A DNA stretch of 39,749 nt from a virus (lineage: Duplodnaviria > Heunggongvirae > Uroviricota > Caudoviricetes), in IMG/VR virus record IMGVR_UViG_2541047827_000012, one strand, 5' to 3'. The stretch's first letter is position 1. The number at the start of each line of letters is the position of its first letter. Below the pieces are notes generated by a model. The model saw nothing but the letters and a program-made list of their open reading frames with translations, ran no database searches and was not told the origin of the DNA. Below are positions 6,587 to 34,748 of this stretch, one piece after another. The translations under genes and the position numbers were made by a program.

Positions 6587-6601
6587 TTACCTTTCAGGTA
6601 A
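6587..6601. promoter_or_regulatory. Operator-like palindrome TTACCTTTCAGGTAA
   Basis: Perfect TTACC-N5-GGTAA inverted repeat about 40 bp upstream of the LexA box and antirepressor-paralog gene. Confidence 0.6.
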
Positions 6602-6638
6602 TTTGCAAAACGTGCTGGATAGCAAACAAATTATTTGA

Positions 6639-6658
6639 TACTGTATAAATATACAGTT
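6639..6658. promoter_or_regulatory. LexA (SOS) box
   Basis: TACTGTATAAATATACAGTT matches the CTGT-N8-ACAG LexA consensus; 20 bp upstream of ATG 6678 and overlaps a TATAAA -10-like element. Confidence 0.7.
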
Positions 6659-6677
6659 ATTGCATGGAGAAGATAAG

Positions 6678-6935
6678 ATGCAGCAGTATCACTATCCACT
6701 GGAAGACGGATTTACCGAAAGGATTCACACGCCGGGAGGCGTCAGGTCACTGGTGGAGGGATCGCACTTGATGAAATTACTCCGGGATCTCGATAAGGAT
6801 GGATTTAATGTCGATGGCCCACTTGCCGAACTGACTGCACTGATTAACTACGTCACCAGCTCACAGATGTCTATGCGGGATCTGCAAACACATCTCGACT
6901 ATTGTGCCGAACAATTACGAAAACAAACCAGATAA
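6678..6935 (+). CDS. Antirepressor C-terminal-domain paralog (lacks Bro-N domain), 85 aa
   Basis: SD GGAG before ATG 6678; sequence ...GVRSLVEGSHLMKLLRDLDKDGFNVDGPLAELTALINYV...RDLQTHLDY aligns at roughly 40-45 percent identity to the last 85 residues of the Bro-N protein at 7249..7935. Confidence 0.6.
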   Translation: MQQYHYPLEDGFTERIHTPGGVRSLVEGSHLMKLLRDLDKDGFNVDGPLAELTALINYVTSSQMSMRDLQTHLDYCAEQLRKQTR

Positions 6936-6966
6936 GGTTTGCAATTGCCAAGTGGAGTGCTTATAT

Positions 6967-6981
6967 TTACCTTTGCGGTAA
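6967..6981. promoter_or_regulatory. Operator-like palindrome TTACCTTTGCGGTAA
   Basis: Perfect TTACC-N5-GGTAA in the 312-bp non-coding stretch between the paralog and the antirepressor gene. Confidence 0.55.
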
Positions 6982-7248
6982 ATTTACATCGCACTCCTCT
7001 TGTGCCATAGTAATCGGGCACTGGCAAAATCCAGTGCCGGGATTGGCGTCCCGAGTTACTACAGAGGCACATATGCCGCATAAGCGGTTTTTTTTATGTG
7101 TAAAGCGCACCTATTCTATGGTGGGCTGTGTGGGGGCACCGAAAGGTGCGCCGGGTCCTTTGTAGCCGGTTACGCCAACCCTGCACAGTTCACCACCAAC
7201 CGATTGGCGTCGGTAGTGGTGATTAACCTAACTACAAAGGTGATCACT

Positions 7249-7935
7249 ATGACTGCTAACGTAACCCCATCTGTTTTTCATTTTGAATCAGAAGCAACCA
7301 TTCGAGCCATTGTTATTGATGGAAATCCTTGGTTTGTTGCCAAAGACGTTATTAAAGCTCTTCAACTGACAAACCCCACTATGTCAATAAAATCTCTTGA
7401 TGATGATGAAAGGGCTAAATTTAACTTAGGCCGTCAAGGCGAAACCAATATTATCAACGAGTCAGGCCTCTACACACTGATCCTCCGCTGCCGCGATGCA
7501 GTAACACCAGGCACTATCCCCTACCGCTTTCGCAAATGGGTTACAGGTGAGGTTCTTCCTCAGATCCGCCGCACCGGAAGTTACATTAAAAACTCGCTCC
7601 CGCAGGAAGAACGCATAAAGATGGTTGCCGACCAGGTTGCAAACGCCACAGCATCAGCAGTGATGCAGGCAATGAAGATAGAGAACAAAACCTACAGCGC
7701 CCCACTGAAGCCCGGCTACCGCAGCCTGATTCATTCGCCGTCTGGTGTTCTCGGCCTGACGGAGAACTCACTGCTGATGAATTTGCTGAACCAGTTACAG
7801 GAAGACGGGCATGACGTATCGGGCGCGGCGGCGGAGCTGACTACCATGTTCTGCTACATCGTCGGTGTGAGCAAATGCCTGCGTGATATCCAGACGCACG
7901 CGGAGTACATCAACGACAAGGCAGGGTTCTTCTGA
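7249..7935 (+). CDS. Antirepressor (Bro-N domain plus KilA-C-like C-terminal domain)
   Basis: SD AAAGGTGA before ATG 7249; Bro-N pattern FHFESEATIRAIVIDGNPWFVAKDVIKALQL...ESGLYTLILRCRDAVTPGTIPYRFRKWVTGEVLPQIRRTGSYI. Confidence 0.8.
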   Translation: MTANVTPSVFHFESEATIRAIVIDGNPWFVAKDVIKALQLTNPTMSIKSLDDDERAKFNLGRQGETNIINESGLYTLILRCRDAVTPGTIPYRFRKWVTGEVLPQIRRTGSYIKNSLPQEERIKMVADQVANATASAVMQAMKIENKTYSAPLKPGYRSLIHSPSGVLGLTENSLLMNLLNQLQEDGHDVSGAAAELTTMFCYIVGVSKCLRDIQTHAEYINDKAGFF

Positions 7936-8008
7936 CAGAACGGCGGCACAGGGATGTGCCTTTAAATAATTCTGTACAGATTGCAGACCGGGGGTGAATA
8001 GCGTACTA

Positions 8009-8023
8009 TTACCTTAAAGGTAA
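8009..8023. promoter_or_regulatory. Operator-like palindrome TTACCTTAAAGGTAA overlapping a putative promoter
   Basis: Perfect TTACC-N5-GGTAA; putative -35 TTGCAG (7981-7986) and -10 TACTAT (8004-8009) with 17-bp spacing put the site over the -10 and start of the 8050 operon. Confidence 0.55.
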
Positions 8024-8049
8024 ACCATGTGTTTACATGAGGAGGAGAT

Positions 8050-8259
8050 ATGGGATTTTGGTTCGCTCGTACAAAAACGAGGGATAATGCACCCAGCCCT
8101 CAGGCAAAAAATGCAGAAGTTCCGGCGTCAGCGCAGGTTAACAAGCGTGGTGGTGTGTATATCTCATCACAGCAAATTTCTGAGCTTCCTGAGGTTAAGG
8201 AGATGCGTCGTCTCGCTGCTGCAATCGTTAAACAGGATCTTGCCACTGTAAGGAAATAG
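8050..8259 (+). CDS. Hypothetical 69-aa protein, first gene of accessory operon
   Basis: Strong SD GAGGAGGAG 6 nt before ATG 8050; stop overlaps start of the next gene. Confidence 0.5.
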   Translation: MGFWFARTKTRDNAPSPQAKNAEVPASAQVNKRGGVYISSQQISELPEVKEMRRLAAAIVKQDLATVRK

Positions 8260-9125
8260 TGTTGTTAGCTCTTCTAATTATCCCCATTCTGGTTAGTGGT
8301 TATATTATGATAACCGCTAACCAGTATCATTATTTCCGTTTATACCGACATGAAGGCCAGCTTCTTTATATGAAAGTAGCTGCATTAGGTACATATTGCC
8401 TTGTTGCTTCGGTAATAATTGCCGCATTTATAAAATATAAATATCCTGATTTTCACCTAGTTCACGATATGGTGGAAACTTTTAATGTAACGTCAAAACC
8501 AGAAACAGATAGAATTTACATGTGGCTGCTTCTTCTCTCAGCCACATCCATTTGCTTCTCTTTGTGTTATGTGTCTGTTGTGTGGGTGAAAGATTTTCTT
8601 CTTGGTTGTTTTTATAAACGTGATATTTATGAGCAAAAAACAGAGGCAATGAAGGCCAGAGTACTGCGAAAAACTTACTCGCAAGGTTCTTTAGACTTAC
8701 TATTGCTTGATGCTATTGAATCGGATCCTAAACGACCAATGCTGATTACTTTATCATCAAACAAAGTGTATGTTGGAATAATAAATGGTTCTGGTGAACC
8801 AACGGAAAATCAGGGTCCGCATCAGCACATATCTTTTGTTCCTTTAATGTCAGGATACAGGAACAAAGACAACTTATCTGTCACATTCACTAATGCTTAT
8901 CCAGGAGAAATACAGGTCAAGCGGACTGCAGCAATAAGAGGAATTAGCAGAAAGAAAGTGCCAGGACTTGAGATCATGGTGTCTATTGACGAAATAAGTT
9001 ATATATCATGGTTTGATTTTGAAGTATATAAAGCAACAAATAACAAAGTAGAATCCAGGGGGCACGTTATTCGTGTTACCAAAAATGGAAGAAATATATA
9101 TCAAAGAAATAGCAAAAAAGAATAG
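8259..9125 (+). CDS. Membrane-anchored protein of unknown function (N-terminal TM helices plus 160-aa soluble domain)
   Basis: GTG start at 8259 overlapping upstream stop (SD AGGA 8251-8254); about 3 hydrophobic helices in the first 110 aa; markedly AT-rich versus flanking phage DNA; followed by a terminator. Confidence 0.6.
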   Translation: MLLALLIIPILVSGYIMITANQYHYFRLYRHEGQLLYMKVAALGTYCLVASVIIAAFIKYKYPDFHLVHDMVETFNVTSKPETDRIYMWLLLLSATSICFSLCYVSVVWVKDFLLGCFYKRDIYEQKTEAMKARVLRKTYSQGSLDLLLLDAIESDPKRPMLITLSSNKVYVGIINGSGEPTENQGPHQHISFVPLMSGYRNKDNLSVTFTNAYPGEIQVKRTAAIRGISRKKVPGLEIMVSIDEISYISWFDFEVYKATNNKVESRGHVIRVTKNGRNIYQRNSKKE

Positions 9126-9145
9126 CCCGCGCTGCGGGCTTTTTT
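9125..9145 (+). terminator. Rho-independent terminator after the membrane-protein operon
   Basis: GCCCGC-gct-GCGGGC hairpin followed by TTTTTT. Confidence 0.6.
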
Positions 9146-9217
9146 GTGGACGAAACAAAAGCCAGTGCTACACTCATTGACGCCACATTGAGGTGGCTTA
9201 TAGATGGAAATTTCACA

Positions 9218-9379
9218 ATGAAAAAAGCATTTGCTGCACTGTTCGTTTTGTTGTCTCTGGTAGCTTCAACTCAGGCCTTTGCCGGTCGTTGTCAGCACGA
9301 CAGCGATACTGCCGCTGACGGCTCCCGCTGCGGTGGGCGTTCTGCGGATTCCCGCCCGGGTGGCGGTGGCATTCGTTAA
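9218..9379 (+). CDS. Small secreted peptide (signal peptide plus about 31-aa Cys-containing mature part), hypothetical
   Basis: MKKAFAALFVLLSLVASTQAFA then GRCQHDSDTAADGSRCGG...; weak RBS; the track ORF from 9146 starts inside the upstream terminator so the internal ATG was chosen. Confidence 0.35.
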   Translation: MKKAFAALFVLLSLVASTQAFAGRCQHDSDTAADGSRCGGRSADSRPGGGGIR

Positions 9380-9401
9380 AAACAAGGCCGCGAAAGCGGC
9401 C
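9378..9401 (-). terminator. Rho-independent terminator for the minus-strand gene 9411..9707
   Basis: GGCCGC-gaaa-GCGGCC hairpin (9386-9401) followed on the minus strand by TGTTTTT. Confidence 0.55.
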
Positions 9402-9402
9402 T

Positions 9403-9414
9403 GTGACATGTCAC
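9403..9414. repeat. 12-bp palindrome GTGACATGTCAC (copy 1 of 3)
   Basis: Exact 12-mer shared with 26927-26938 and 29192-29203; overlaps the stop codon of 9411..9707 and abuts its terminator. Confidence 0.8.
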
Positions 9415-9707
9415 GTCCCTTTTCTGAATGATAGCCATTCGAAAAATGATGACATTCCACCGCAGACAATAGCAAAGATGATCCCACCAAAGAAGAGAAG
9501 GCCAGCCTGCCACCACTCCCACCGCCATACATCCACAGCGCCAACCATACCAACAATCGCTCCAACAAATGGAATATAGCTCACGATGAAAGCAATGGGG
9601 GCTGCAATTATCCAGTGCAATCCCCACCATGATTCAAGCCCAGCCATAATTGCTGCCAACTGAAAAAGACCAACGACGATATAAACAATGAATCCTATAG
9701 CTTGCAT
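9411..9707 (-). CDS. Small integral membrane protein (3 TM, Trp-rich), unknown function
   Basis: SD AGGTGA before ATG 9707; 98 aa, almost entirely hydrophobic helices. Confidence 0.55.
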   Translation of the reverse strand: MQAIGFIVYIVVGLFQLAAIMAGLESWWGLHWIIAAPIAFIVSYIPFVGAIVGMVGAVDVWRWEWWQAGLLFFGGIIFAIVCGGMSSFFEWLSFRKGT

Positions 9708-9719
9708 GTAGTCACCTAT

Positions 9720-9893
9720 TTACCCAGTAAAAATAAGAGGCCTCCCCTCAATAAGGCTTGCAACAAGAACTACTCCCTGCACAACAAAGATGAACCAGCA
9801 AATAGCTTGAGTCTGAGGGTTAAGAAAATATTTGTAGCGGTCAATAAATAACAATACACCAGAAATTATCACACTCAAAATAATTAAAAACAC
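9720..9893 (-). CDS. Putative 57-aa hydrophobic membrane peptide (GTG start), not in the supplied ORF track
   Basis: My own translation: GTG at 9893 preceded by SD AAGGAAG, encoding VFLIILSVIISGVLLFIDRYKYFLNPQTQAICWFIFVVQGVVLVASLIEGRPLIFTG; stop abuts the SD of the next gene; AT-rich. Confidence 0.35.
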   Translation of the reverse strand: MFLIILSVIISGVLLFIDRYKYFLNPQTQAICWFIFVVQGVVLVASLIEGRPLIFTG

Positions 9894-9902
9894 AACACTT
9901 CC

Positions 9903-12377: not shown

Positions 12378-12382
12378 TTAAT

Positions 12383-17704: not shown

Positions 17705-20175
17705 CAGAATCCCCCAACAGTAAGGCGAGGAATAACGGCAAGAACAGACAGCGGCAACGGATCAAGCTGACGGATTTTTACACGTCCGTTTTTGCCCCAG
17801 TTACTGTCCAGTTTCACTTCTACTTTTCCGGTAGCATCATCAACAGGATCATCGTAGAACTCGAATTCACGCTGTGGATATTCGTACCATTTACCGCCGG
17901 GCGTAGTCGCCCAGATGCCGCGACTGGCATTCACAACCAGAGTAACGGAGGGGATCACCTGTTTTTTGTCCAGCAGCGTTTCCTGTCCGTTAATGTTGAT
18001 ATCCAGTGTTTCGAATTCAGCAGTTATTGGCAGGCCGATGTGCACTACAGCCCCCGGAGATTCCAGCGTGACGGCACCTCTGGAAACCACTTTCTGTGGT
18101 TCCACGTTCGCATCAGAGAGAATGTTTACGGTCTGGCCTTCAAGATGAGACAGGCCTCCAAATGTCCGGCGCGCCATCTGCCAGTTCGTGGTGGCCACAT
18201 TCCTGAGGGATGGCGGGACGTTCCTGTTAGCACGAACCACTACAGCGGTATTGCTGGTTACAGAAATAATGTCGCAACGTAATTCTTTTGACACTTCATC
18301 GCCAGTACCAGGATCAGTTCCGGTATAAGGGAACTGTAGTTGCGCGCCGACATCACTACTGGTGAAGTACGCACCACCAGAAACACTGATTGTATATTCT
18401 GCACGGTAATCCCATTCACCAGAACCACCAGTGATGGTCATCGTTCTGTCAGACGTATTTCTTCCATCATAGCTAAGGCCAGAATCAACAAAGAAAGCAT
18501 CTTCATCGCTGGTAAATAAACGGCTGGACAGTCGCTCGATGTATCTCACTGTTTGCCCGTTAACGGTTCGGTTAATGACGAAATACACCGCATCTTCATT
18601 GCCTTCGCTGATACTGCATGTGCTTTCATATTTTCCGGTACTGGACTGTGGTGCCCATGCAAAAACCTGTTGATCACGCAAATAGGTCATCACCAGTAAT
18701 TTACCGTCATCACGAATGCAGAAGGCGCTGGAGTAAGGGACAATAGAGAAGCACCAGTCAACAATGCTGTGCTTCTGAAAAAGATGATTGGCAAGGATAG
18801 TAAGGTCGTTCCCCTGATAGCCGTCAACATCGAATGAGTAGGCCAGATCACGGACAACACTGCCTTTCTCCTGTACGAACAGAGCAATATTCGCCACGGC
18901 AATTGGTGGGACATTGCTCGAGCCATTTGATCCCTGAGAGCTGAATGCAAATGATGATGGGGTTAACACTTTGTTCTGGTCGCCGGTGATGACGTACTCA
19001 CCTCCGGAAGTCAGCGCCACCAGCGAACCAACATCAATCAGGTGGCGGATCTCATTAACCTGACGCCCGGCATAGGTGTAGATAATTCTGTCGTCATCCT
19101 GCGTAGGATTGCTTTTGCCAAAATCCTTATAATCCCCGGTACGGCTGGCCCAGATAGTCTGAGGGAACGCAGTCGATGCGGCGAAGTAAAGACGCTGTTG
19201 ATAATAAACAACAGTGCCAGGATAACCATTAACACTGTTCCAGGCATATTTAGCCCATTTATAGCTGGCATTATCCTCGCCAACTACCTGCGAAGGGATA
19301 TAGGAAATCACCTCAGCAGTTGCAGTAGTGCCATTTACAGCAGTTATACGGGCAATGCCAAAACCACTGTGCAGATACTCCCACTCAATGCCAGTATCAT
19401 CATCACCGGATCCGCCCCAGCCATCCCATGATGTGCCTTCTGTATGCGAAGGGCGCAAAGTGCCTGTTTTGCCTGCTGTAACGGCTCGATAGTAGTTACT
19501 GTCTGCACGGCGAATATCGCCAATCGACGTACTCTTACTGGTTTCCCATACCGGCACTGAATCCACTGCAGGCTGTTCCAGATAGAACAATTTGCCTACC
19601 TGCTCCGCGCCAAAAATAGAGGCGCTTGCCGTTAACGTAATTGTCCCGGTGCTGGCGCTGGCATAAACCGTCACTGACTCGTCAATATTGATATCTTCAA
19701 ATGGCCCGTTCTTCGTTACCACATCAACCAGTTGCCAGTTGTCATGAGCATATCGGCGCAACTCTTTCGGCGGGTATGCCGGGTGAACCAGCGTAAGCAC
19801 GTCGGCGCTTTGCGTGAATTTAATTCGGAACAGATCGGCTTCAGTATATGGCGTGGCAATTTCATAAATAACATTGCTGCTGTTCAGCACCAACGCACCA
19901 TCTTTGATAACGCGCATGTACTGGTGTCCGAACTCCAGAGCATAGGTCTGAACCGTCGAGAACTGGAACGGGATCAGGCGGCATTTCCGATTTGGGTATT
20001 TGGCGGCACCGACAAAACGCGTACCAGGTCGATTCTCAACGCCGCCATACTGCCGCACGATAAAGTTATCGCACTTGCGCAATGCCACCTGGTACTTCGC
20101 CATGTCGATACGACCGTACAACGACGGTCCAATCTCACCACCGGCAAAGCTGGGCTGGATCCAACTGATAGCCAT
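17704..20175 (-). CDS. Tail tubular protein B-like (T7 gp12-like nozzle), 823 aa
   Basis: Size, position after the gp11-like gene and N-terminus MAISWIQPSFAGGEIGPSLYGRID resembling the T7 gp12 N-terminal pattern. Confidence 0.7.
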   Translation of the reverse strand: MAISWIQPSFAGGEIGPSLYGRIDMAKYQVALRKCDNFIVRQYGGVENRPGTRFVGAAKYPNRKCRLIPFQFSTVQTYALEFGHQYMRVIKDGALVLNSSNVIYEIATPYTEADLFRIKFTQSADVLTLVHPAYPPKELRRYAHDNWQLVDVVTKNGPFEDINIDESVTVYASASTGTITLTASASIFGAEQVGKLFYLEQPAVDSVPVWETSKSTSIGDIRRADSNYYRAVTAGKTGTLRPSHTEGTSWDGWGGSGDDDTGIEWEYLHSGFGIARITAVNGTTATAEVISYIPSQVVGEDNASYKWAKYAWNSVNGYPGTVVYYQQRLYFAASTAFPQTIWASRTGDYKDFGKSNPTQDDDRIIYTYAGRQVNEIRHLIDVGSLVALTSGGEYVITGDQNKVLTPSSFAFSSQGSNGSSNVPPIAVANIALFVQEKGSVVRDLAYSFDVDGYQGNDLTILANHLFQKHSIVDWCFSIVPYSSAFCIRDDGKLLVMTYLRDQQVFAWAPQSSTGKYESTCSISEGNEDAVYFVINRTVNGQTVRYIERLSSRLFTSDEDAFFVDSGLSYDGRNTSDRTMTITGGSGEWDYRAEYTISVSGGAYFTSSDVGAQLQFPYTGTDPGTGDEVSKELRCDIISVTSNTAVVVRANRNVPPSLRNVATTNWQMARRTFGGLSHLEGQTVNILSDANVEPQKVVSRGAVTLESPGAVVHIGLPITAEFETLDININGQETLLDKKQVIPSVTLVVNASRGIWATTPGGKWYEYPQREFEFYDDPVDDATGKVEVKLDSNWGKNGRVKIRQLDPLPLSVLAVIPRLTVGGF

Positions 20176-25881: not shown

Positions 25882-25971
25882 ATCAATGACTCCGTACGCA
25901 ATTAAATTATTACCAATTTAACCACATATGATTTATTTATCGTAGGTGGTTGACATTTAACGCATAAATTA

Positions 25972-25986
25972 TTACCTTTCAGGTAA
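25972..25986. promoter_or_regulatory. Operator-like palindrome TTACCTTTCAGGTAA at head-operon promoter
   Basis: Identical 15-mer to the site at 6587; lies upstream (minus direction) of the 25881/portal operon next to a TTGACA hexamer. Confidence 0.55.
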
Positions 25987-26308
25987 GTAAAGAGTTCATT
26001 CCGGTTATTAACCTGACTGGCTTGTCGTTAAATTGAACAGATGGGGTGAGCTTTTATTTTGAGCAGTACGGTGTATGGCACATGCGTCGATAGCGGTCTG
26101 GATACGTTTAAGGGGCACCCTCCCTTGCTCGAGCAAACGAACCAGGTAGCCGGAATGTGCAAGTCGAGCGGTTTTATTCCGCGCACGGGGATTCACCATC
26201 CCGGCGATTCGGTGTGACGCCTCGGAAGAGACGAGGGTACAACGATGAGAGCATTTATGGAGCCGCGACAAAGTGTGGCGCCTTAACAGGCTAAGTGCTC
26301 TCAGCGTT

Positions 26309-26385
26309 GTGGCATTAGCTCAGTTGGACAGAGCAACCGCCTTCTAAGCGGTTGGTCGCAGGTTCGAATCCTGCATGCCACGCCA
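26309..26385 (+). tRNA. tRNA-Arg (anticodon TCT, reads AGA)
   Basis: Cloverleaf folded by hand: acceptor GTGGCAT/ATGCCAC, D-arm GCTC-AGTTGGACA-GAGC, anticodon stem ACCGC/GCGGT with loop CTTCTAA, T-arm GCAGG-TTCGAAT-CCTGC, discriminator G plus CCA. Confidence 0.9.
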
Positions 26386-26547
26386 GAATCACGCCTAAGG
26401 ACCGTGATGCCAGAAGTTCCAGGTGCTTGGCGGTGATGGTTTCCTTTGAAGGACTATCACCGCCCTTTTTACAGCAGGACGCCATTGCGATGACTTCATG
26501 CTGTAAACCAGTACAGCCACGGAAGGCATAACTCATTGCTTCCAGTT

Positions 26548-26583: not shown

Positions 26584-26922
26584 ATGAACAACCAGCAAAT
26601 CGAAAAAGAAATCGTTGAGAAAGGCAAAACGGCACCGCGCGTTACGCCAGGCCATATCGAAAGCATTATTCTTGCGGAAACGTACTTCACTGCTGCTGAT
26701 GGGGCTATTGCAACTGGCGATGACTATCACGACAGTTTGGCTCTGCTGACATTTTGTGTATTGACTCTACAAAATGGCTTCACCGTCACCGGAGAGAGTG
26801 CCTGTGCAAGCCCTGAAAACTTTGACGCAGAAATTGGTCGGAAGATTGCCCGGCAGAATGCTGTAAACAAAATCTGGATGCTCGAAGGTTACTTGCTGAA
26901 GCAGAAGCTAAGCGAGCAATAA
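26584..26922 (+). CDS. Phage Gp49-like protein (112 aa), function unknown
   Basis: SD AAGGTGA before ATG 26584; resembles the small gp49/Sf6 gp66-like phage protein family by recollection. Confidence 0.55.
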   Translation: MNNQQIEKEIVEKGKTAPRVTPGHIESIILAETYFTAADGAIATGDDYHDSLALLTFCVLTLQNGFTVTGESACASPENFDAEIGRKIARQNAVNKIWMLEGYLLKQKLSEQ

Positions 26923-26926
26923 CACC

Positions 26927-26938: not shown

Positions 26939-26942
26939 AAAC

Positions 26943-26970: not shown

Positions 26971-27012
26971 TCCTCATCAGAGGATATCAACGACATTATC
27001 CCCACCAGCGGA

Positions 27013-28488: not shown

Positions 28489-29081
28489 TGATTACCATCC
28501 TGACGTTCTTTGAGTCGCTTCCTGGCTGCTGCTATGCGATCAGCAATTGTCACATTCACATTAACATCCAGACGTTCTTTGAACGCGTTGACATCAACAT
28601 GCTTACCAATCAGCTCAAGGTTCTTCACCTTGTCAGGCCATTTAATTTTTTTGAGGATTGTCTCTATCGAATCCTCGTTCATGTTCATGATGGTCGATGA
28701 CAGATCAAAGCCACTAAGCGTAGTGCGCCAGATTTTCGGCCACTCACGGATTGGTTTAAGGCTCCCATCGTCGTTGAGGATGTCGATCACGTCCATCTGG
28801 TCGATCTCCACCAGGCGCATGAGAACGTAATCAGCACTGACGCGCATTCGTTTGTTGCGCTCCTCCATCAACTCGGCAATCCGTTTTTGAATGCGTTCAT
28901 CGCGCATCATGACACTGGCTTTAACTGCCGCTGTATTTGGGGAGAATCCTGCGTTAATCGCTGCCTGAGTCTGGTTTTCAGGCGTTTTGATGTATGACTG
29001 GCAATAAGCCTCCTGCATTGCTGTTAGTGGCTTAAATTGCGTTGATTTGCGTTTATAGGTTTTAGGTTCAGCAGGCATCAT
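28485..29081 (-). CDS. Terminase small subunit
   Basis: Start set at internal ATG 29081 because the track N-terminal extension runs through upstream direct repeats; typical TerS size and position. Confidence 0.65.
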   Translation of the reverse strand: MMPAEPKTYKRKSTQFKPLTAMQEAYCQSYIKTPENQTQAAINAGFSPNTAAVKASVMMRDERIQKRIAELMEERNKRMRVSADYVLMRLVEIDQMDVIDILNDDGSLKPIREWPKIWRTTLSGFDLSSTIMNMNEDSIETILKKIKWPDKVKNLELIGKHVDVNAFKERLDVNVNVTIADRIAAARKRLKERQDGNQ

Positions 29082-29088
29082 AACCACC

Positions 29089-29120
29089 GTGGTAATAGTT
29101 ACCGTTGTGGTAATAGTACC
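29089..29120. repeat. Direct repeat GTGGTAATAGT(T)ACC x2 upstream of TerS
   Basis: Two copies at 29089-29103 and 29107-29120; each contains GGTAA-N3-(T)TACC, the operator half-sites in inverted order. Confidence 0.6.
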
Positions 29121-29122
29121 AT

Positions 29123-29150
29123 GCAAAATAAAGCCGCCATAGTTGGCGGC
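29123..29150 (-). terminator. Rho-independent terminator upstream of the TerS/late operon
   Basis: GCCGCC-aactat-GGCGGC hairpin followed on the minus strand by TTTATTTTGC; 42 nt before the TerS start. Confidence 0.55.
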
Positions 29151-29191
29151 AGTATTCAAAACCCATCAAATTCATCATGCATAATCTACTC

Positions 29192-29203
29192 GTGACATGT
29201 CAC
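29192..29203. repeat. 12-bp palindrome GTGACATGTCAC (copy 3 of 3)
   Basis: Exact 12-mer overlapping the stop codon of 29200..29541, about 40 nt upstream (minus direction) of the terminator at 29123-29150. Confidence 0.8.
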
Positions 29204-30332: not shown

Positions 30333-30334
30333 AG

Positions 30335-30526: not shown

Positions 30527-30527
30527 C

Positions 30528-31181
30528 TCACTCTCCTTTGATGCGAATGCCAGCGGCGCGGATTGCAGCGATGACATCAGAAACTTTGTATGCCATTACC
30601 GTTTGGTAATCATCGTGAAAATCTGTTCGATGAAGCATGCTGCTACGTTCCGGGAGCAGTATTTCCCGCTCCTCCAGTTCTGCTATGCGCTTACTTCCAT
30701 CCGCGATTACTCCCTCGTAATATTCACGCTGCTCGTTGAGTCTTGATTTTGCTGCTTCAAGCTCAACGCGCAGCTTCCCTACCGTTAGCGCAATTTCCTC
30801 GTTCTCCTGGTCGCGGGATTTGATGTATTGCTGGTTCCTTTCCCGTTCATCCAGTAGTGCCAAAGCAACCTTTGGATTAAAGGCAGCAATAAATTCAGCG
30901 TTGTTTTTCAGAACGTGTTGCGCAATCGCCTGACTACTTAGTCGGACCTCATAACCACGTGCGCCACGGTTGATAACCTTGATTTCGTCCATAGCGCCAG
31001 ACTTCAGCCCCGCATTCTCCGCCGCCAGCGCATTAGCACGCGCCAGTTGCACTTCCAGTTGCGTTGCCAAATCGCTGATCAGCTTTGCCACACTGCGCAT
31101 ATCAACGGCACCACATTCTGCTTTCAGTTCCGAAGCCATCTCATGCCCGGCGGCAACTAACCCTTTGATATTACTTTCCAT
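30528..31181 (-). CDS. Hypothetical coiled-coil protein (217 aa)
   Basis: Long predicted coiled-coil segments; early/nin-like region. Confidence 0.5.
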   Translation of the reverse strand: MESNIKGLVAAGHEMASELKAECGAVDMRSVAKLISDLATQLEVQLARANALAAENAGLKSGAMDEIKVINRGARGYEVRLSSQAIAQHVLKNNAEFIAAFNPKVALALLDERERNQQYIKSRDQENEEIALTVGKLRVELEAAKSRLNEQREYYEGVIADGSKRIAELEEREILLPERSSMLHRTDFHDDYQTVMAYKVSDVIAAIRAAGIRIKGE

Positions 31182-31242
31182 CTTTACCCTCGCTTATCCA
31201 CATAACTTATTGATTACATTGATAACTAAAAAGATCGTCGAT

Positions 31243-31587
31243 TCAGAACTCTTCGATGTTCCAGCCACCACCTGCTTTCTTTGGTTTAACCGTTACCCCG
31301 ATGATTCGGAACGGATACTGATCTGCGGCGACTTTGGTTTTCACCCTGGCGTCGTCGGTCCAGAAACCTTTCACTTCGTGCAGTTCCATCTCGCCGGTGA
31401 CGAGCATCACAGCGAAATCGGGCGTATAGAACGTGTTGTCAGCTAACCGCAGCTTGATACCCTCGAATCGATACCAGGCGATTTCCCCTGCACGTTTACG
31501 CTGCTCAAGGTGCTGGCAATACGCAGATTCTGTTTTGTTCATCTGGCCTGTTTTGAGTCGACCAAGAGCCTGTATCTGTTTTCTCAT
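31243..31587 (-). CDS. Putative PD-(D/E)XK-fold nuclease (114 aa)
   Basis: Motif YTPDFAVMLVTGEMELHEVKG resembles the D...E-x-K nuclease core; SD GAGG lies within the palindromic site at 31591-31605. Confidence 0.45.
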   Translation of the reverse strand: MRKQIQALGRLKTGQMNKTESAYCQHLEQRKRAGEIAWYRFEGIKLRLADNTFYTPDFAVMLVTGEMELHEVKGFWTDDARVKTKVAADQYPFRIIGVTVKPKKAGGGWNIEEF

Positions 31588-31590
31588 GAT

Positions 31591-31605
31591 TTACCTCTGA
31601 GGTAA
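31591..31605. promoter_or_regulatory. Operator-like palindrome TTACCTCTGAGGTAA
   Basis: Perfect TTACC-N5-GGTAA, 4 bp upstream of the nuclease start codon and overlapping its RBS. Confidence 0.55.
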
Positions 31606-31652
31606 TTAAAAACCACATAAGACACTAAATCAATAGAATTTAGAATATTTTG

Positions 31653-31667
31653 TTACCCAATAGGTAA
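31653..31667. promoter_or_regulatory. Operator-like palindrome TTACCCAATAGGTAA
   Basis: Perfect TTACC-N5-GGTAA in the 117-bp gap between the P-like and nuclease genes. Confidence 0.55.
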
Positions 31668-31704
31668 CTATCGAGGCGTAAAAAAATGCGCTATCGCGCT
31701 GGTA

Positions 31705-32505
31705 TTACTTGATAAATCCTGCCGCCTTTCCCCGCCTGTATTCCTCCATCAGCCACTGCGCCGGTGTTATTCCCCCAAGGGTGGCGGCGTTAGGCATGCA
31801 CCCGAAACTTCGCCCTGGCGGGTGGTAAACGTCTCTCCCTGTGTCCGGAGGTGTACTCATGGGTTCTGGCTTTGCCTGTATGCTGATCACCGGATCGGGT
31901 ATCTGCTGTCCGGAAGCCACCTTTTTCGCCCAATCATCGAGCAGCCTGCGCGCGTGTTTCTCAACCTCAATCTCGCTAAGCTGGCGCTGATACATTGCAC
32001 GGCGGGTATCACATACGACCCAGTACATAACCGGATGTCGCCACGGGAATCTTTCGGGACCGCCAGGATATAAACTTTTTTCCTTGCTGTACCGGTGAAA
32101 CTCCGCCATCACATCGTCAATGGTGACGCCAAGAACCATCTTGCTGTCTTTGCACCACTTGATGAATTGCCCTGGCGACGGCCAGAACGGAGATTCACTG
32201 GCGCGGGCGTGGCGCATACCAGCAGAAACCTGTTCACGGGTTCGGATCCCCCCTTCGGCAAACGCAGCAATCCACTGCTGTTTTGCAGCAACTTCCTGCT
32301 CTGGCGTCTTCAGGTTGGTTACCACTGCCGCCGGAAACAGTTGTTTCAGCTGTTTAAAAAGGGCATCAACAAGCCTCTCTGCTGACATGTTCACCACATT
32401 GTCATTGTTGACGTATTGATGCTCATAACCTGACATGCGAGAAAGGGCTTCTCCGTCACGGTTTTGTATCGCGGTAAAAACGTTGTTCACAAGAAATCCT
32501 CCCAT
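31705..32505 (-). CDS. Replication protein P-like (DnaB helicase loader)
   Basis: Central region ...QQWIAAFAEGGIRTREQVSAGMRHARASESPFWPSPGQFIKWCKD... closely parallels lambda P as I recall it. Confidence 0.75.
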   Translation of the reverse strand: MGGFLVNNVFTAIQNRDGEALSRMSGYEHQYVNNDNVVNMSAERLVDALFKQLKQLFPAAVVTNLKTPEQEVAAKQQWIAAFAEGGIRTREQVSAGMRHARASESPFWPSPGQFIKWCKDSKMVLGVTIDDVMAEFHRYSKEKSLYPGGPERFPWRHPVMYWVVCDTRRAMYQRQLSEIEVEKHARRLLDDWAKKVASGQQIPDPVISIQAKPEPMSTPPDTGRDVYHPPGRSFGCMPNAATLGGITPAQWLMEEYRRGKAAGFIK

Positions 32506-33278
32506 GCTTCAGGGCTGTTCCAGTGCGGAACGTTGTTATCAGGTAATGTTGATTGCTTCTGTCTGCTAATCTGCAGCCGCCTTGCCAGCTTCTGCTCCCA
32601 CTGTGCCTGATGGTATGCCTTACCCTCAGCCATCCAGTAAATTCTGAACTCTGCAAGTTCCTGTGCCGTTGGCAGACTGTCCAGGTAGATCCCCTGCAAT
32701 GAGCTTTTCCGAAGAAAGTCATCTGATGGCTGCCATTGTTCATGCATGACAAATTTGCCTAATTGCCCTGGCCCACCAGGAGGAACAAAGTTATTCATCA
32801 CGGCGTTGTTTGCGCCGGGGTCATGAGGCACAGAATCCCCGCTTTTTGTCCTGCTCTCCCTCTCTTGGTTAAATGACTGGTTATATGACTGGTTCTGGAT
32901 CCCGTTTTTGGGATCATTCAACATCCCGTTTTTGGGTATATTCCCTTTTTCGGTAACATTACCGTTTTCGGGTTCATTGCCCCCCTCTCGGTTGCCTTTA
33001 ATGTTCCCGTTTTTGGTTATATTAAGAGAGAAAACCCGCACTCTTTTTGTCGCTCCCTTTCTCTCCCCGGTATCTGAAATAAGCCCCATTTTCATGAGCG
33101 ATATAAGTCCGGCCTGCACGGTTTTTTTATTCAGGCAAGTGTCTTTAACGAGGCGTTCTATGCTGGGGTAGCAGAGGTTATATTCATCGGCTCTGTCAGC
33201 CATCGAGAGCAGTATGAGCTTTAATGACGAGCTACCTGGATCTGTCTCCCAGGCCCAATCTGTTGCATGTCTGCTCAT
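32487..33278 (-). CDS. Replication initiator (lambda O-like / DnaD-like HTH), contains the origin
   Basis: N-terminal HTH-like segment, low-complexity Asn/Gly/Lys linker encoded by iteron DNA, conserved C-terminal domain; overlaps P-like gene start. Confidence 0.65.
   Translation of the reverse strand: MSRHATDWAWETDPGSSSLKLILLSMADRADEYNLCYPSIERLVKDTCLNKKTVQAGLISLMKMGLISDTGERKGATKRVRVFSLNITKNGNIKGNREGGNEPENGNVTEKGNIPKNGMLNDPKNGIQNQSYNQSFNQERESRTKSGDSVPHDPGANNAVMNNFVPPGGPGQLGKFVMHEQWQPSDDFLRKSSLQGIYLDSLPTAQELAEFRIYWMAEGKAYHQAQWEQKLARRLQISRQKQSTLPDNNVPHWNSPEAWEDFL
32866..33020. repeat. Putative replication origin: five iteron-like repeats (CCCGTTTTTGG) plus tandem ATGACTGGTT repeats
   Basis: Iteron cores at 32901-32911, 32925-32935, 32943-32953 (CCCTTTTTCGG), 32961-32971 (ACCGTTTTCGG), 33006-33016; tandem ATGACTGGTT at 32873-32882 and 32885-32894; all inside the O-like linker region as in lambda ori. 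Confidence 0.6.
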
Positions 33279-33293
33279 GATTAATCTCCGCTA

Positions 33294-33494
33294 TCAGCTT
33301 GAATGTTGTGGGGAGGAATTAATCATGATCTGCTTAATCTCTGCCCTGATACGACGGTTTGATTCCATGGTGCACTCAACACAGTGTCCGTTGTAAACCC
33401 AGCGTTCACTGTCATGTCCGTGCTTACATGTTTTTCCGGTGTAGTAGCGTTTAAGTCCGCGCTTTGCGGCATCAATACGTGTAATGATTTCCAT
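33294..33494 (-). CDS. Small Cys/His-containing protein (66 aa), hypothetical
   Basis: Start set at ATG 33494 (SD-like AGGG); motif C-K-H-G-H...C-V-E-C; the two upstream in-frame ATGs lack RBS. Confidence 0.4.
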   Translation of the reverse strand: MEIITRIDAAKRGLKRYYTGKTCKHGHDSERWVYNGHCVECTMESNRRIRAEIKQIMINSSPQHSS

Positions 33495-33574
33495 GGTAAG
33501 CCCTGTTATTAGTATTGGGATTACGGTCATTTTGTGCTGACACAAAAAAAATATCAACCAGATTTGGTTTTTTA

Positions 33575-33589
33575 TTACCTTTGAGGTAC
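33575..33589. promoter_or_regulatory. Operator-like site TTACCTTTGAGGTAC (one mismatch)
   Basis: TTACC-N5-GGTAc between the Cro-like terminator and the next early gene. Confidence 0.4.
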
Positions 33590-33593
33590 GAAT

Positions 33594-33622
33594 AGATATG
33601 AAAAGACCGCCGGGTGGCGGTC
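33594..33622 (-). terminator. Rho-independent terminator after the Cro-like gene (tR1-like position)
   Basis: GACCGCC-ggg? hairpin (GACCGCC/GGCGGTC at 33605-33622) followed on the minus strand by TTTTCAT. Confidence 0.5.
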
Positions 33623-33644
33623 TACAGAGGGTTGTAGCTGGATA

Positions 33645-33875
33645 TCATGAGTAGAAGAAGTATGCCAGTTCTGCTTTTGAGCGCAGCCATTGTCTTGTTT
33701 TACAGGCTTTAAAAAGCCCATTCATCAATACTTTACCTGGCATTTTGCGCTTACCTGTTAAGTGAGTCTGGATATAGTGACTCGTCGTTCCGGCTTCCTG
33801 TGCGAAGGCTTCACGCTCATCCGGAGTAAGTGCAAGCCAGTGCTTTTTGAAATCGAAATGTCCGTTATCGCTCAT
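33645..33875 (-). CDS. Cro-like HTH regulator (YdaS/Cro family)
   Basis: 76 aa; ...EREAFAQEAGTTSHYIQTHLTGKRKMPGK... parallels the lambda Cro HTH; divergent from the repressor gene across a three-operator region. Confidence 0.6.
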   Translation of the reverse strand: MSDNGHFDFKKHWLALTPDEREAFAQEAGTTSHYIQTHLTGKRKMPGKVLMNGLFKACKTRQWLRSKAELAYFFYS

Positions 33876-33911
33876 AGCTATTGCCTGATATTTATTTCAG
33901 ATAATAAATAT

Positions 33912-33974
33912 TCACCCATAAGGTAACAAAAATCAAGGATAGTTACCTATGAGGTGCATTTACCTGTTGGGTAA
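33912..33974. promoter_or_regulatory. Three clustered operator sites between the Cro-like and repressor genes (OR-like)
   Basis: 33912-33926 tCACC-N5-GGTAA, 33943-33957 TTACC-N5-GGTgc, 33960-33974 TTACC-N5-GGTAA; centre spacings 31 and 17 bp. Confidence 0.6.
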
Positions 33975-34029
33975 TATTGCTTTAAATTGAATCATCTACT
34001 GATTCATATATGAGGCGATTTTCCAGAAA

Positions 34030-34614
34030 ATGAAAAGTATCCAGGACGTCCGCAGGCAAAATCTCAACGACTTGATCGACCGTGAATTCAATGGTGTTCA
34101 GACGCGGATGGCAGAAAAACTTGGAACTCAGGCAAATCTGGTAAACCGCTGGGCTCTTGGCAAGAAGGTTATCGGCGACCAGGTTGCACGAAAAATTGAA
34201 GCTGCCGCCAATAAACCCCGTAACTGGCTTGATATTGATCGCTCGCTTTCTCAGGAGGGTTTTCAGCCTGTCGGCCCGAGCGATATAGGTCAGCTGGCGG
34301 CTCACAACCTGGAACGCTGGATGAGCGAAAGCCGCGACCTTTCAACGCAGGGAAAACTACACCGCGCATCCGGCGTCGCCCAGGTGACAATCAGCCGCCT
34401 GTTAAACAATGAGGTCAGCGTTTCCATTTCCACCCTGGAGAATGTTGCATCCGCATTCGGGCGTCACGGCTATGAATTACTGATTCACCCGCACGACCCT
34501 GCGACCATCAACTATGATCGCTCGCGCTACGCATTGTTACCCGAAACCGAGAAAGCAAAGATCGAAAGTTACATTGAATTTGTCATCAACCAGAACGAAA
34601 AAAACAAACAATAA
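34030..34614 (+). CDS. Prophage repressor, double-HTH, no S24 peptidase domain (CI-like position)
   Basis: 194 aa with two HTH-like segments; no Ala-Gly cleavage site or Ser/Lys peptidase motifs seen; flanked by operator clusters; followed by a terminator. Confidence 0.65.
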   Translation: MKSIQDVRRQNLNDLIDREFNGVQTRMAEKLGTQANLVNRWALGKKVIGDQVARKIEAAANKPRNWLDIDRSLSQEGFQPVGPSDIGQLAAHNLERWMSESRDLSTQGKLHRASGVAQVTISRLLNNEVSVSISTLENVASAFGRHGYELLIHPHDPATINYDRSRYALLPETEKAKIESYIEFVINQNEKNKQ

Positions 34615-34636
34615 AATCATATTTTTCAGTAAGTAA

Positions 34637-34658
34637 GCCGCCAGAAGGCGGCTTTTTT
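34637..34658 (+). terminator. Rho-independent terminator after the repressor gene
   Basis: GCCGCC-agaa-GGCGGC hairpin followed by TTTTTT. Confidence 0.7.
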
Positions 34659-34671
34659 ATTGCCTATTCGA

Positions 34672-34686
34672 TTACCTAATGGGTAA
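34672..34686. promoter_or_regulatory. Operator-like palindrome TTACCTAATGGGTAA (OL-like, distal)
   Basis: Perfect TTACC-N5-GGTAA upstream of the TTGACA hexamer at 34706-34711. Confidence 0.55.
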
Positions 34687-34733
34687 TTTTTTTAACTCAT
34701 ATCTATTGACATCAAACCAGATACGCATAATTA

Positions 34734-34748
34734 TTACCTCAACGGTAA
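34734..34748. promoter_or_regulatory. Operator-like palindrome TTACCTCAACGGTAA overlapping the early rightward promoter (OL-like, proximal)
   Basis: Perfect TTACC-N5-GGTAA just downstream of TTGACA-N17 and followed by a GGTAAC half-site within the RBS of the first early ORF. Confidence 0.55.

Follow-up and report, generated by a model that had tools for sequence, protein, structure and literature searches.

A dispersed palindrome as the probable Rep operator set of a Uetakevirus prophage of Escherichia coli

The prophage, its regulators and the palindrome

The window, that is the whole stretch of 39,749 nucleotides analyzed here, is a Uetakevirus (epsilon15/phiV10-like) prophage of E. coli. 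Its repressor, Rep (34030..34614, plus strand), consists of an N-terminal HTH DNA-binding domain and a second HTH-like dimerization/tetramerization part; its Pfam matches are to HTH_3 and YdaS-like only, and an S24 peptidase (autocleavage) domain was not found in it by the Pfam search. Rep is 100% identical to phiV10 p40 and matches the SPC32H repressor (PDB 5D50_A, E 4e-42) over residues 1-190. The repressor of phage ZX5, which according to its description is the same protein as that of phiV10 (PMC9782041), is N-terminally identical to Rep. Divergent from rep lies the gene for a small Cro-like HTH protein (33645..33875, minus strand), which matches phrog_35, "transcriptional repressor", with an E value of 5.6e-13. 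The recognition-helix stretch NLVNRW of Rep is invariant in six phages despite an overall identity of only 43%, and the HTH stretch AGTTSHYIQ(T/V)HLT of the Cro-like protein is also invariant in six phages.

An exact scan of the window for the palindrome TTACC-N5-GGTAA returned ten perfect copies, at 6587, 6967, 8009, 25972, 29099, 31591, 31653, 33960, 34672 and 34734. A previous sequence-only reading had reported nine of these, all of which were recovered, and had missed the one at 29099; it had similarly reported three mismatched copies, at 33575, 33912 and 33943, which we confirmed, and had missed a fourth with one mismatch at 29081. Shuffles that preserved dinucleotide composition contained a mean of 0.01 perfect palindromes (maximum 1). 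When up to one mismatch was allowed, 13 palindromes were found versus 0.65 expected, the additional ones being 29081, 33575 and 33912, and the two-mismatch copy at 33943 brings the total to 14. A weight matrix trained only on the sites of phiV10, Tyrion and SPC32H ranked exactly these 14 palindromes at the top of the window, with scores of 15.9-26.3 for 12 of them and of about 9 for 29081 and 33943, each of which is on its own no better than the shuffle maxima. The next match in the window scored 5.1, and the scan revealed no sites there beyond the 14.

As had been proposed, the sites are all intergenic: non-coding DNA, only 7.3% of the prophage part, contains 14 of 14, and none is in coding sequence (P ~4e-12 for the ten perfect copies). 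All except 29081, which is within the terS leader, coincide with or adjoin promoter-like elements or conserved late-promoter boxes. At five sites (34734, 6967, 8009, 31591 and 29099) the palindrome begins on the last T of a -10 hexamer and covers the start site, while at 25972 it contains the -10 and at 33912 it lies inside the cro promoter. Several of these -35/-10 assignments are our own reading of weak matches, and a promoter scan overall gave no more sites than in shuffles.

Is the palindrome a property of this one prophage? Six related genomes, from phages of E. coli, Enterobacter, Salmonella and Klebsiella, have 13-18 copies each versus ~0.5 expected, and alignments of orthologous regions show no change in any of the ten half-site bases, in the -35 boxes or in a 62-bp spacing, whereas the five spacer bases differ between phages. 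In the epsilon15 record (AY150271.2), seven copies of the palindrome carry the annotation "protein_bind" repressor / lysogeny, and these are syntenic with five site groups of the window. Specifically, a site upstream of terS (12-27) corresponds to 29099, one upstream of the portal operon (2931-2947) to 25972, and one between ant and the tailspike gene (19895-19911) to 6587; annotation at the early-left promoter corresponds to 34672/34734 and that between the replication and nuclease genes to 31653. The earlier suggestion that the palindrome is a repressor operator is thus supported by the epsilon15 annotation and its synteny, by the invariance of half-sites, -35 boxes and 62-bp spacing in the six phages, and by the homology of Rep to the SPC32H repressor. 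We conclude that the palindrome is the one already annotated as a repressor-binding site in epsilon15 and that this prophage is an ordinary, well-conserved case of a known switch.

We did consider whether the motif might instead be the target of a host factor or of a different phage regulator, or whether it reflects composition or chance in AT-rich intergenic DNA, as half-sites alone are ~3-5x denser in non-coding than in coding DNA. However, shuffling the non-coding segments alone gave 0.0035 copies versus the ten observed, which effectively refutes a chance origin. In addition, the half-sites are invariant over four host genera while the spacers drift, the motif is annotated as a repressor site in epsilon15, and it travels with Rep homologs, even into Pseudomonas phage PseuP_224, in which TTACC-N4-GGTAA palindromes lie directly upstream of the gene for a distant homolog of the Rep N-terminus. 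We regard this explanation as highly improbable.

Operators at the early, replication and nuclease promoters

Three operators occupy the region between the cro-like gene and rep (33912..33974), in agreement with the OR-like arrangement proposed for 33912, 33943 and 33960. The first (33912-33926, one mismatch) overlaps the cro promoter TTGTTA-17-TATTAT (33929-33901), the second (33943-33957) has two mismatches, and the third (33960-33974) is perfect and lies next to the rep promoter region. The 48-bp spacing of this cluster (or 17+30-bp) recurs in phiV10, Tyrion, epsilon15, SPC32H and phiv142-3.

The position of these sites raises the possibility that the Cro-like protein is the main or an additional reader of the palindromes, so that the dispersed copies would damp transcription during lytic growth and not in the lysogen. 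Consistent with this, its small HTH gene is divergent from rep with three sites between them, its HTH is as invariant across the six phages as the half-sites are, and lambda Cro shares its operators with CI. Repression in the lytic phase at the terS leader, nuclease and antirepressor promoters would, however, harm the phage; furthermore, the epsilon15 record names the repressor as the protein that binds them, and the palindromes in the Pseudomonas phage adjoin a relative of Rep. We therefore consider this reading unlikely, although the Cro-like protein could share sites at OR only.

The early-left promoter (34672..34748, plus strand; TTGACA(34706)-17-AATTAT(34734)) has an operator on either side, as had been described for the OL-like pair: a distal one (34672-34686) and a proximal one (34734-34748), with 62 bp between their centers. 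The -10 hexamer and the proximal operator share one base, a T that ends the former and begins the latter. In an alignment of six phages the half-sites and the -35 box are invariant and the spacers vary, and among 80 IMG/VR contigs that encode an identical Rep, almost all have the pair at the same fixed positions.

The same arrangement is found at the promoter of the DUF1064 nuclease-like operon (31591..31667, minus strand; TTGATT(31633-31628)-17-TTTAAT(31610-31605)), whose proximal (31591-31605) and distal (31653-31667) operators are also 62 bp apart. The ATG of the operon follows the proximal operator by 3 nt, and both operators, the -35 box and GGTAAA..TCATG are invariant in the six-phage alignment. 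A single operator with one mismatch (33575..33589) lies just past the cro terminator and 17 nt upstream of the -35 of the replication-gene promoter TTGATA(33557)-17-CAAAAT(33529); its orthologs are GTACC variants in phiV10 (33112), Tyrion (35365) and phiv142-3 (31909).

Operators at the antirepressors, the cargo slot and the late genes

The prophage has two different antirepressors, a LexA-controlled SPC32H-type Ant and a Bro-N protein. In the first unit (6639..6935, plus strand), a pattern search identified a perfect LexA box, CTGTATAAATATACAG (6641-6656), 22 bp upstream of the start codon of ant (6678-6935); the box is conserved in the alignment. The 85-aa Ant matches PDB 5D50_E, "Anti-repressor protein" (E 1.4e-46), and the SPC32H ant is 87% identical to it. 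The second module (6939..7935, plus strand) begins with the promoter TTGCAA(6939)-17-TATATT(6967), whose -10/+1 region is covered by operator 6967-6981, and continues with an isrK-like RNA (7018-7094), a C4-like antisense RNA (7114-7200; a full-length Rfam C4 match of 79.5 bits) and the Bro-N antirepressor (7249-7935; matches to Pfam Bro-N and PHROG "anti-repressor Ant"). The complement of the C4 loop (7157-7165) is found at 7232-7240, across the RBS of the Bro-N antirepressor gene. Operator 6967 is also present in phiV10 (20497) and phiv142-3 (5138).

A further operator (8009-8023) lies on a weak promoter (7981..8023, plus strand; TTGCAG(7981)-17-TACTAT(8009)). Homology to phiv142-3 is ~96% identical through the base after this palindrome and then ends, and behind it is a variable, swappable cargo slot with ORFs at 8050-8259 and 8259-9125, which gave unknown-function PHROG matches only and none in Pfam, NCBIfam or PADLOC. 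The operator had been placed at antirepressor promoters; this is correct for 6967, at the head of the isrK/C4/Bro-N module, but 8009 heads the cargo slot.

On the late side, tandem operators 18 bp apart (29081..29113, minus strand) occupy the leader of terS-terL, a late operon; they are flanked by an intrinsic terminator (29133-29150) on one side and by the probable start codon of terS (ATG 29066) on the other, and a TACTAT hexamer ends on the first T of operator 29099-29113. The pair is intergenic only if terS starts at ATG 29066 and not at TTG 29159, and the former is supported by the presence of the terminator within the longer ORF and by the annotated terS starts of Tyrion and SPC32H. The tandem pair also occurs in phiV10 (87/105), Tyrion (67/85), epsilon15 (12/30) and phiv142-3 (26454/26472).

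Operator 25972-25986 overlaps the promoter TTGACA(25950)-17-TACCTT(25973) (25950..25986, plus strand), and the six-phage alignment shows the same TTGAC box throughout, always at one distance from the palindrome. The site had been attributed to the promoter of the portal operon, but the promoter it overlaps points the opposite way, toward a tRNA-Arg(UCU) (26309-26385) and a gp49/66-family gene (26584-26922); on the other strand the portal operon has its conserved late-promoter box ~80 bp downstream of the operator. Similarly, operator 6587..6601, between the tail-fiber gene (start 6482, minus strand) and ant (plus strand), is followed one base downstream by a conserved TTGCA box and lies, by alignment, ~70 bp upstream of the tail-fiber late-promoter box. 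The conserved late box, CATATnnGGTT-N5/6-GGTAATA, has no -35 element and so looks activator-dependent. Direct control by the repressor, claimed for late and accessory promoters alike, is consequently unsupported for the portal and tail-fiber promoters, given the orientation of the 25972 promoter and the gaps of 70-80 bp to the late boxes.

Do these sites, then, act on late genes at all? It is possible, if somewhat short of an even chance, that 6587, 25972 and the terS pair spare the late promoters and instead regulate divergent small units (ant, tRNA-Arg) or anchor looping by Rep, with the late genes off for want of an early-encoded activator. The distances of 6587 and 25972 from late boxes that lack a -35, the opposite direction of the perfect TTGACA at 25972, and the candidate early regulators (AlpA-like, PerC-like) in the early-left operon all fit this idea. 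On the other hand, the terS ATG comes directly after the operator pair, whose -10-like hexamer has the register seen at the early promoters, and overexpression of the ZX5 repressor lowered endolysin and holin transcripts by more than 99.9%, abolishing lysis-gene transcription, though perhaps indirectly (PMC9782041).

Known systems and the proposed switch

The epsilon15 repressor-binding sites are reportedly those of Kropinski et al. 2007 (Virology 369:234). The window shares with epsilon15 identical half-sites (there annotated as 16-17-bp sites), the repressor family, the genome architecture and operator placement at five loci, although the epsilon15 repressor is only 43% identical overall to Rep. 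A third early-left operator and a perfect site ahead of the lysis genes occur in epsilon15 but not in the window, whereas the Bro-N/C4 module and the cargo-slot site of the window are absent from epsilon15; the epsilon15 record also gives no annotation for the OR sites or for the proximal site of the nuclease promoter. For SPC32H, a Rep-Ant lytic switch is said to have been described by Kim and Ryu 2013 (J Virol 87:11775) and Kim et al. 2016 (PNAS 113:E2480; PDB 5D4Z, 5D50). Rep and Ant are homologous in the two phages, a LexA box precedes ant, Rep lacks an autocleavage domain and the palindrome is perfect ten times in the SPC32H genome, but the window adds the Bro-N antirepressor behind its isrK/C4 leader and a cargo slot predicted to be Rep-controlled.

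More distantly, the layout recalls the C1 regulon of P1/P7, in which the immI operon (c4 RNA-icd-ant) is reportedly under Op51 (Heinrich, Velleman and Schuster 1995, FEMS Microbiol Rev). In both, the operators of one repressor are numerous and dispersed over the genome, each at a separate promoter, and one such promoter drives an antirepressor operon also held down by a C4 antisense RNA. The window differs in lacking an icd-like ORF and in having an isrK-like RNA in the leader as well. P1 operators are asymmetric 17-bp sites, and their sequence is unrelated to the window palindrome. The stoperators of cluster A mycobacteriophages (L5 gp71) are said to have been described by Brown et al. 1997 and Pope et al. 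2011. They resemble the window sites as many copies of one repressor site reaching beyond the immunity region. Stoperators, of which there are 20-30 or more, are asymmetric, share one orientation within transcribed regions and stop elongation, whereas the 14 window sites are symmetric, intergenic and mostly on or beside promoter-like elements, and we do not retain the stoperator-like layout earlier proposed for them. As in lambda OL/OR, repressor and cro genes diverge from a gap that contains three sites, and another operator group lies at the early-left promoter. In the window, however, operators extend to seven further loci, paired operators 62 bp apart bracket a promoter, and induction of the S24-less Rep is proposed to occur by antirepressor.

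We put the probability at roughly 0.85 that the 14 palindromes, as read from the sequence, constitute the Rep operator set in the lysis-lysogeny control of Uetakevirus (epsilon15, phiV10, SPC32H). According to secondary sources, the SPC32H Rep tetramer binds palindromic DNA sites and tetrameric Ant disassembles Rep (PMC9638917, PMC9986798). By homology and published work, Rep would likewise act as a tetramer in which each pair of N-terminal domains reads one palindrome, so that a tetramer could hold two. Bound Rep would block RNA polymerase at 34734, 6967, 8009, 31591, 29099, 25972 and 33912, and the second palindrome exactly 62 bp upstream at two promoters suggests a single tetramer clamping the promoter from both sides. 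In the lysogen, Rep would silence separate transcription units directly and without a cascade, namely the early-left, cro/early-right, replication and nuclease operons, the terS leader, the tRNA-Arg unit, the Bro-N antirepressor module and the cargo slot. As Rep has no autocleavage domain, induction would proceed as in SPC32H: upon DNA damage LexA would leave the box before ant, and Ant would take apart the Rep tetramer. All operators would then open together, including that of the Bro-N antirepressor, the opening of which would lock in the decision to induce.

Number, placement and conservation of the sites

An exact scan of the window found ten perfect copies of TTACC-N5-GGTAA (6587, 6967, 8009, 25972, 29099, 31591, 31653, 33960, 34672 and 34734), against an expectation of 0.01 from dinucleotide-preserving shuffles, and allowing one mismatch raised the count to 13, against 0.65 expected, by adding the copies at 29081, 33575 and 33912. 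With a two-mismatch copy at 33943 the set comprises ten perfect and four imperfect sites, which fall into nine separate groups. The comparison with shuffled controls suggested along with the sequence-only reading came out in favor of that reading, and every site it listed was correct, but it had missed 29099 and 29081, which the exact and mismatch scans recovered. A weight matrix for which the phiV10, Tyrion and SPC32H sites were the sole input gave exactly the same 14 sites as its top matches in the window, followed by a sharp drop. When the window was divided using a gene map after phiV10, by which 7.3% of the prophage is non-coding, all 14 sites lay in non-coding DNA and none in coding DNA, as had been claimed; a shuffle of the non-coding DNA only gave 0.0035 copies against the 10 observed, and the 16-kb structural operon holds none of the 14.

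For the pair 29081/29099 this intergenic placement holds only if terS begins at the ATG at 29066, which, judged from the sequence, is its probable start. The longer terS ORF holds an intrinsic terminator (29133-29150), and both Tyrion and SPC32H annotate the equivalent ATG; the terS start in the phiV10 record (41) takes in the terminator and is probably too far upstream. The terS pair are the sole sites located downstream of a promoter-like site and a terminator. An invariant palindrome, GTGTGACATGTCAC (29190-29203), overlaps a promoter-like site and is followed by the terminator, which is strong, and then by the terS operators. This palindrome is kept at the genome ends of Tyrion and SPC32H, and the arrangement across 29133-29203 is reminiscent of late antitermination at lambda PR'/tR', or else of a packaging site.

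The attachment core ATTGAGTGGGAATGATT, its sequence taken from PMC9782041, was located at 1873-1889, so that the prophage extends from about 1873 to the window end, the int start codon; an int-upstream operator would fall past that end. Bases 1-1872 are host DNA with an IS200 copy. This flank has an IS200-type transposase gene (1219-1728, minus strand), an Rfam match to STnc490 (1687-1810), and ORFs of glycine-zipper/TraT-like (1-516) and DUF5384 (532-1071) type.

The immunity region of the window is 97-98% identical to that of Escherichia phage phiV10 and of related members of Uetakevirus, the genus of the epsilon15 group. That the palindrome is the repressor operator, as the sequence-only reading proposed, is corroborated by the GenBank record of epsilon15, in which the same palindrome is annotated as repressor-binding at syntenic positions: the record has seven features labeled "protein_bind: repressor / lysogeny", and all seven contain TTACC-N5-GGTAA. 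They lie upstream of terS (window counterpart 29099), upstream of the gp3/portal operon (25972), between gp19, the ant homologue, and the tailspike gene (6587), between gp37 and the repressor gene (three sites; 34672/34734) and between the replication and nuclease genes (31653), the last agreeing with the operator claimed for the gap between the P-like and nuclease genes. A dispersed layout of repressor sites was thus already on record for the type phage. Full-text literature searches for the motif or operator with these phage names returned secondary mentions only, the primary papers being outside the searched text.

A search of related phages found copies with at most one mismatch far above the roughly 0.5 expected per genome in all six: 15 in epsilon15, 14 in phiV10, 15 in Tyrion, 18 in SPC32H, 15 in phiv142-3 and 13 in Klebsiella phage BUCT711. 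As judged from the six site lists and alignments A1, A2, A6, A7 and A8, the sites are syntenic at terS, upstream of the portal gene, between ant and the tail fibre gene, at the early-left promoter, in the OR cluster and in the replication/nuclease gap. At the early-left and replication/nuclease-gap promoters all six phages share the ten half-site bases and the -35 box exactly and differ in the five central bases. At both promoters the paired operators have their centres 62 bp apart in all genomes (once 63 in BUCT711), the terS pair is 18 bp apart wherever both members were found (phiV10, Tyrion, epsilon15 and phiv142-3), and the OR cluster spans 47-48 bp across related genomes. An operator also lies upstream of the lysis genes in phiV10 (24692), epsilon15 (24704), Tyrion (26408) and SPC32H (24782), and is absent from the window segment searched for it (3806-4296); there a small gene (4000-4296, phrog_1443) stands in place of the O-antigen modification genes, and an AACCA-N4-TGGTT palindrome is retained.

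Promoter geometry and the units under predicted control

Which transcription units would these sites silence? In our own reading of the sequence, the first T of the palindrome is also the last T of a -10-like hexamer at five promoters: TTGACA-17-AATTAT with operator 34734, TTGCAA-17-TATATT with 6967, TTGCAG-17-TACTAT with 8009, TTGATT-17-TTTAAT at 31605 on the minus strand, and, also on the minus strand, TACTAT at 29113, which has no -35 box. Operator 33912 is inside the cro promoter. In all, eight sites share bases with a core element of a promoter, be it a -10 hexamer or another. The distal sites 34672 and 31653 stand 19 nt upstream of the -35 box, and 33575 stands 17 nt upstream. A generic sigma-70 promoter scan gave no enrichment over shuffles, so that our promoter calls rest on conservation and the recurring register and not on the scan.

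The site at 25972 had been placed at the promoter of the portal operon. We rejected this assignment because the only good -35 box there, a TTGACA invariant at a fixed distance in the six phages, faces along the plus strand; given this box, TACCTT within the palindrome is the -10 hexamer, and the promoter points toward tRNA-Arg(UCU) (26309-26385) and a gp49/66-family gene (26584-26922). The ~320 nt between this promoter and the tRNA gene (25987-26308) hold neither a convincing ORF nor an Rfam match; for the corresponding stretch of epsilon15 the record annotates a site of RNase III processing. The tRNA gene is followed by a strong terminator (26429-26464).

On the late-gene strand, 6587 and 25972 lie ~70 and ~80 bp, respectively, upstream of CATATnnGGTT-N5/6-GGTAATA, an element without a -35 box that shows no variation upstream of the portal and tail-fibre genes in the six-phage alignments and probably serves either as a late promoter dependent on an activator or as a site for another regulator. 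Direct repressor control of late promoters had been suggested; with the sites at such distances, it is not well supported by the geometry for those of the tail-fibre and portal operons. Direct repression of early and accessory transcription, and possibly that of terS, is by contrast a prediction well supported by the geometry.

A second palindrome, AACCA-N4-TGGTT, gave eight matches with at most one mismatch against 1.46 expected, including those at 3856-3869, 6547-6560, 6926-6939, 25920-25933 and 33556-33569. It precedes the lysis, tail-fibre and portal operons and adjoins the -35 boxes of two other promoters, and the epsilon15 record has IHF sites near the regions of this palindrome and the late box.

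The resemblance to stoperators drawn by the sequence-only reading does not survive these results. The stoperators of mycobacteriophage L5 are asymmetric, keep a fixed orientation to transcription and occur dispersed inside transcription units and between the genes of long operons, 3' of promoters, whereas the window sites are perfect hyphenated palindromes outside coding DNA, eight of them on core promoter elements.

The repressor, its antirepressors and a proposed switch

The prophage repressor (Rep, 34030-34614, plus strand) has two HTH-like regions, and Pfam matched only HTH in it; neither Peptidase_S24 nor any other peptidase domain was detected by Pfam. It is 100% identical to phiV10 p40 and matches the SPC32H repressor (PDB 5D50_A) over its whole length (residues 1-190, E 4e-42). 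It is therefore of the SPC32H type, with an N-terminal HTH, a C-terminal dimerisation/tetramerisation part and no peptidase domain. Ant (6678-6935, 85 aa) matches the antirepressor chain 5D50_E (E 1.4e-46) and shares 87% identity with SPC32H ant. Just 5' of ant is a perfect LexA box, CTGTATAAATATACAG (6641-6656), kept in the six phages, and together with the 5D50_E match it marks Ant as a predicted small, LexA-controlled antirepressor. Control of ant by LexA was reportedly described by Kim and Ryu in 2013.

According to secondary literature on SPC32H, its Rep binds palindromic sites as a tetramer in which each DNA-binding pair comes from different dimers, and is disassembled by tetrameric Ant (PMC9638917). 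Another secondary source describes an N-terminal DNA-binding, a middle dimerisation and a C-terminal tetramerisation domain, the last of a type linked to DNA looping (PMC9986798). The conserved 62-bp geometry of the paired operators fits the tetramer and looping behavior proposed for Rep.

From the sequence comparisons we assign the window sites to the epsilon15/SPC32H Rep-operator system. The best-supported account would be that in the lysogen Rep tetramers occupy the sites, singly or in pairs, with looping between paired sites, and block initiation at each promoter; upon DNA damage LexA would leave the ant promoter and Ant would dismantle Rep, so that all units would open together, among them the second antirepressor, a Bro-N protein, once C4 control had been overcome. 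The basis of this account is homology, site statistics, conservation and geometry.

The system resembles lambda CI/Cro in its tripartite operator, since, as claimed, three OR-like sites (33912, 33943 and 33960) lie between the divergent cro-like (33645-33875, minus strand) and repressor genes, in the interval 33875 to 34030. It differs from lambda, whose repressor has an S24 autocleavage domain and is induced by RecA, in that no such domain was detected in Rep; the switch is antirepressor-based and the operators are dispersed. It also resembles the P1 C1 regulon and immI, with dispersed operators, each with its own promoter, one of them at an antirepressor operon controlled by c4 RNA. The P1 C1 operator consensus is asymmetric and 17 bp long, whereas the window motif is symmetric, Rep belongs to the SPC32H Rep family, and there is no sequence relation to P1. 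In the immI operon of P1 and P7, ant is held down by a repressor-controlled promoter and by C4 RNA, a logic matched by the module behind operator 6967.

As the sequence-only reading had it, 6967 lies at an antirepressor promoter, namely that of an isrK/C4/Bro-N module. Rfam gave two full-length matches, to isrK-like RNA at 74 bits (7018-7094) and to C4 antisense RNA at 79.5 bits (7114-7200). The C4 loop CCTTTGTAG (7157-7165) is complementary to CTACAAAGG (7232-7240), over the ribosome-binding site of the Bro-N gene, and bases 7172-7178 are complementary both to 7204-7210 and to 7043-7049; P1 c4 has decoy and target pairs that these complementarities resemble. The Bro-N ORF call from 7096 is too long, the likely start being ATG 7249. 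The Bro-N gene of ZX5 is annotated as an anti-repressor whose overexpression lowered lysogeny, and its product shares only 39% identity with those of phiV10 and phiv142-3 (PMC9782041).

Cargo exchange and shared operator half-sites

Operator 8009 had also been assigned to an antirepressor promoter. We rejected this because the two ORFs that it heads (8050-8259 and 8259-9125) have no similarity to Bro-N or Ant, and neither gave a Pfam, NCBIfam or PADLOC match. A hairpin with a 15-bp stem (CTGGTTAGTGGTTAT...ATAACCGCTAACCAG, 8289-8324) lies in the 5' end of the second ORF. The ~96% identity between window 7900-8110 and phiv142-3 6045-6255 ends exactly one base past the 8009 palindrome, and TL-2011b has other genes at this position, including one for a YafO-family toxin, from which we conclude that the promoter-operator cassette is conserved and its cargo exchanged. 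At the nuclease promoter, likewise, the operator-GGTAAA-TCATG block is invariant and the gene behind it differs (DUF1064 or RuvC).

The HTH of the Cro-like protein is conserved, the one observation bearing on whether this protein might share the Rep operators. Within Rep the predicted recognition-helix stretch NLVNRW, in the second helix of the N-terminal HTH, is invariant while overall identity falls to 43%, which agrees with the invariant operator half-sites. One such helix and one half-site are kept across phages of E. coli, Enterobacter, Salmonella and Klebsiella. We sought Rep relatives in which an altered recognition helix accompanied an altered palindrome. All 80 contigs listed by the IMG/VR scan for Rep encode a 100% identical protein, and in nearly all of them the offsets of the OR site and of the 62-bp pairs are fixed. 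Helices are altered in distant homologues of the Rep N-terminus from two phages, PseuP_224 of Pseudomonas and Mcat9 of Moraxella, and TTACC-type half-sites still lie nearby; in PseuP_224 (1410-1480) these form TTACC-N4-GGTAA palindromes upstream of the Rep-homologue gene. Across the identical-Rep contigs, PseuP_224 and Mcat9 there was only co-occurrence of Rep or its homologues with TTACC-type half-sites and no signal of covariation.

In substance the finding is already known and, as a discovery, carries little weight: the epsilon15 record already shows the motif at dispersed positions and assigns it to the repressor, and for SPC32H the structure of the Rep-Ant switch has been determined. New for a phiV10-type prophage, though possibly published in part, are the complete site list, the probable start of terS, the way the 25972 promoter points, the conserved 62-bp pairing, and the prediction that Rep controls both the C4/Bro-N module and a cargo slot whose content is swappable. 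Their use lies in a complete predicted operator map, including sites missing from the phiV10 record, for a very common E. coli prophage whose identical Rep occurs in at least 80 IMG/VR contigs, in the likely correction of the terS start, and in a conserved pairing that could guide mechanistic work. We think two further ideas rather unlikely, namely that the cassettes are fixed module-exchange junctions and, separately, that immunity specificity is not set by the operators as it is in lambdoid phages. A shared helix and shared half-sites at 43% Rep identity bear on whether, and in what way, immunity specificity varies among these phages: if operator recognition does not set it, they would be mutually immune, or specificity would reside elsewhere, for example at the Rep-Ant interface.
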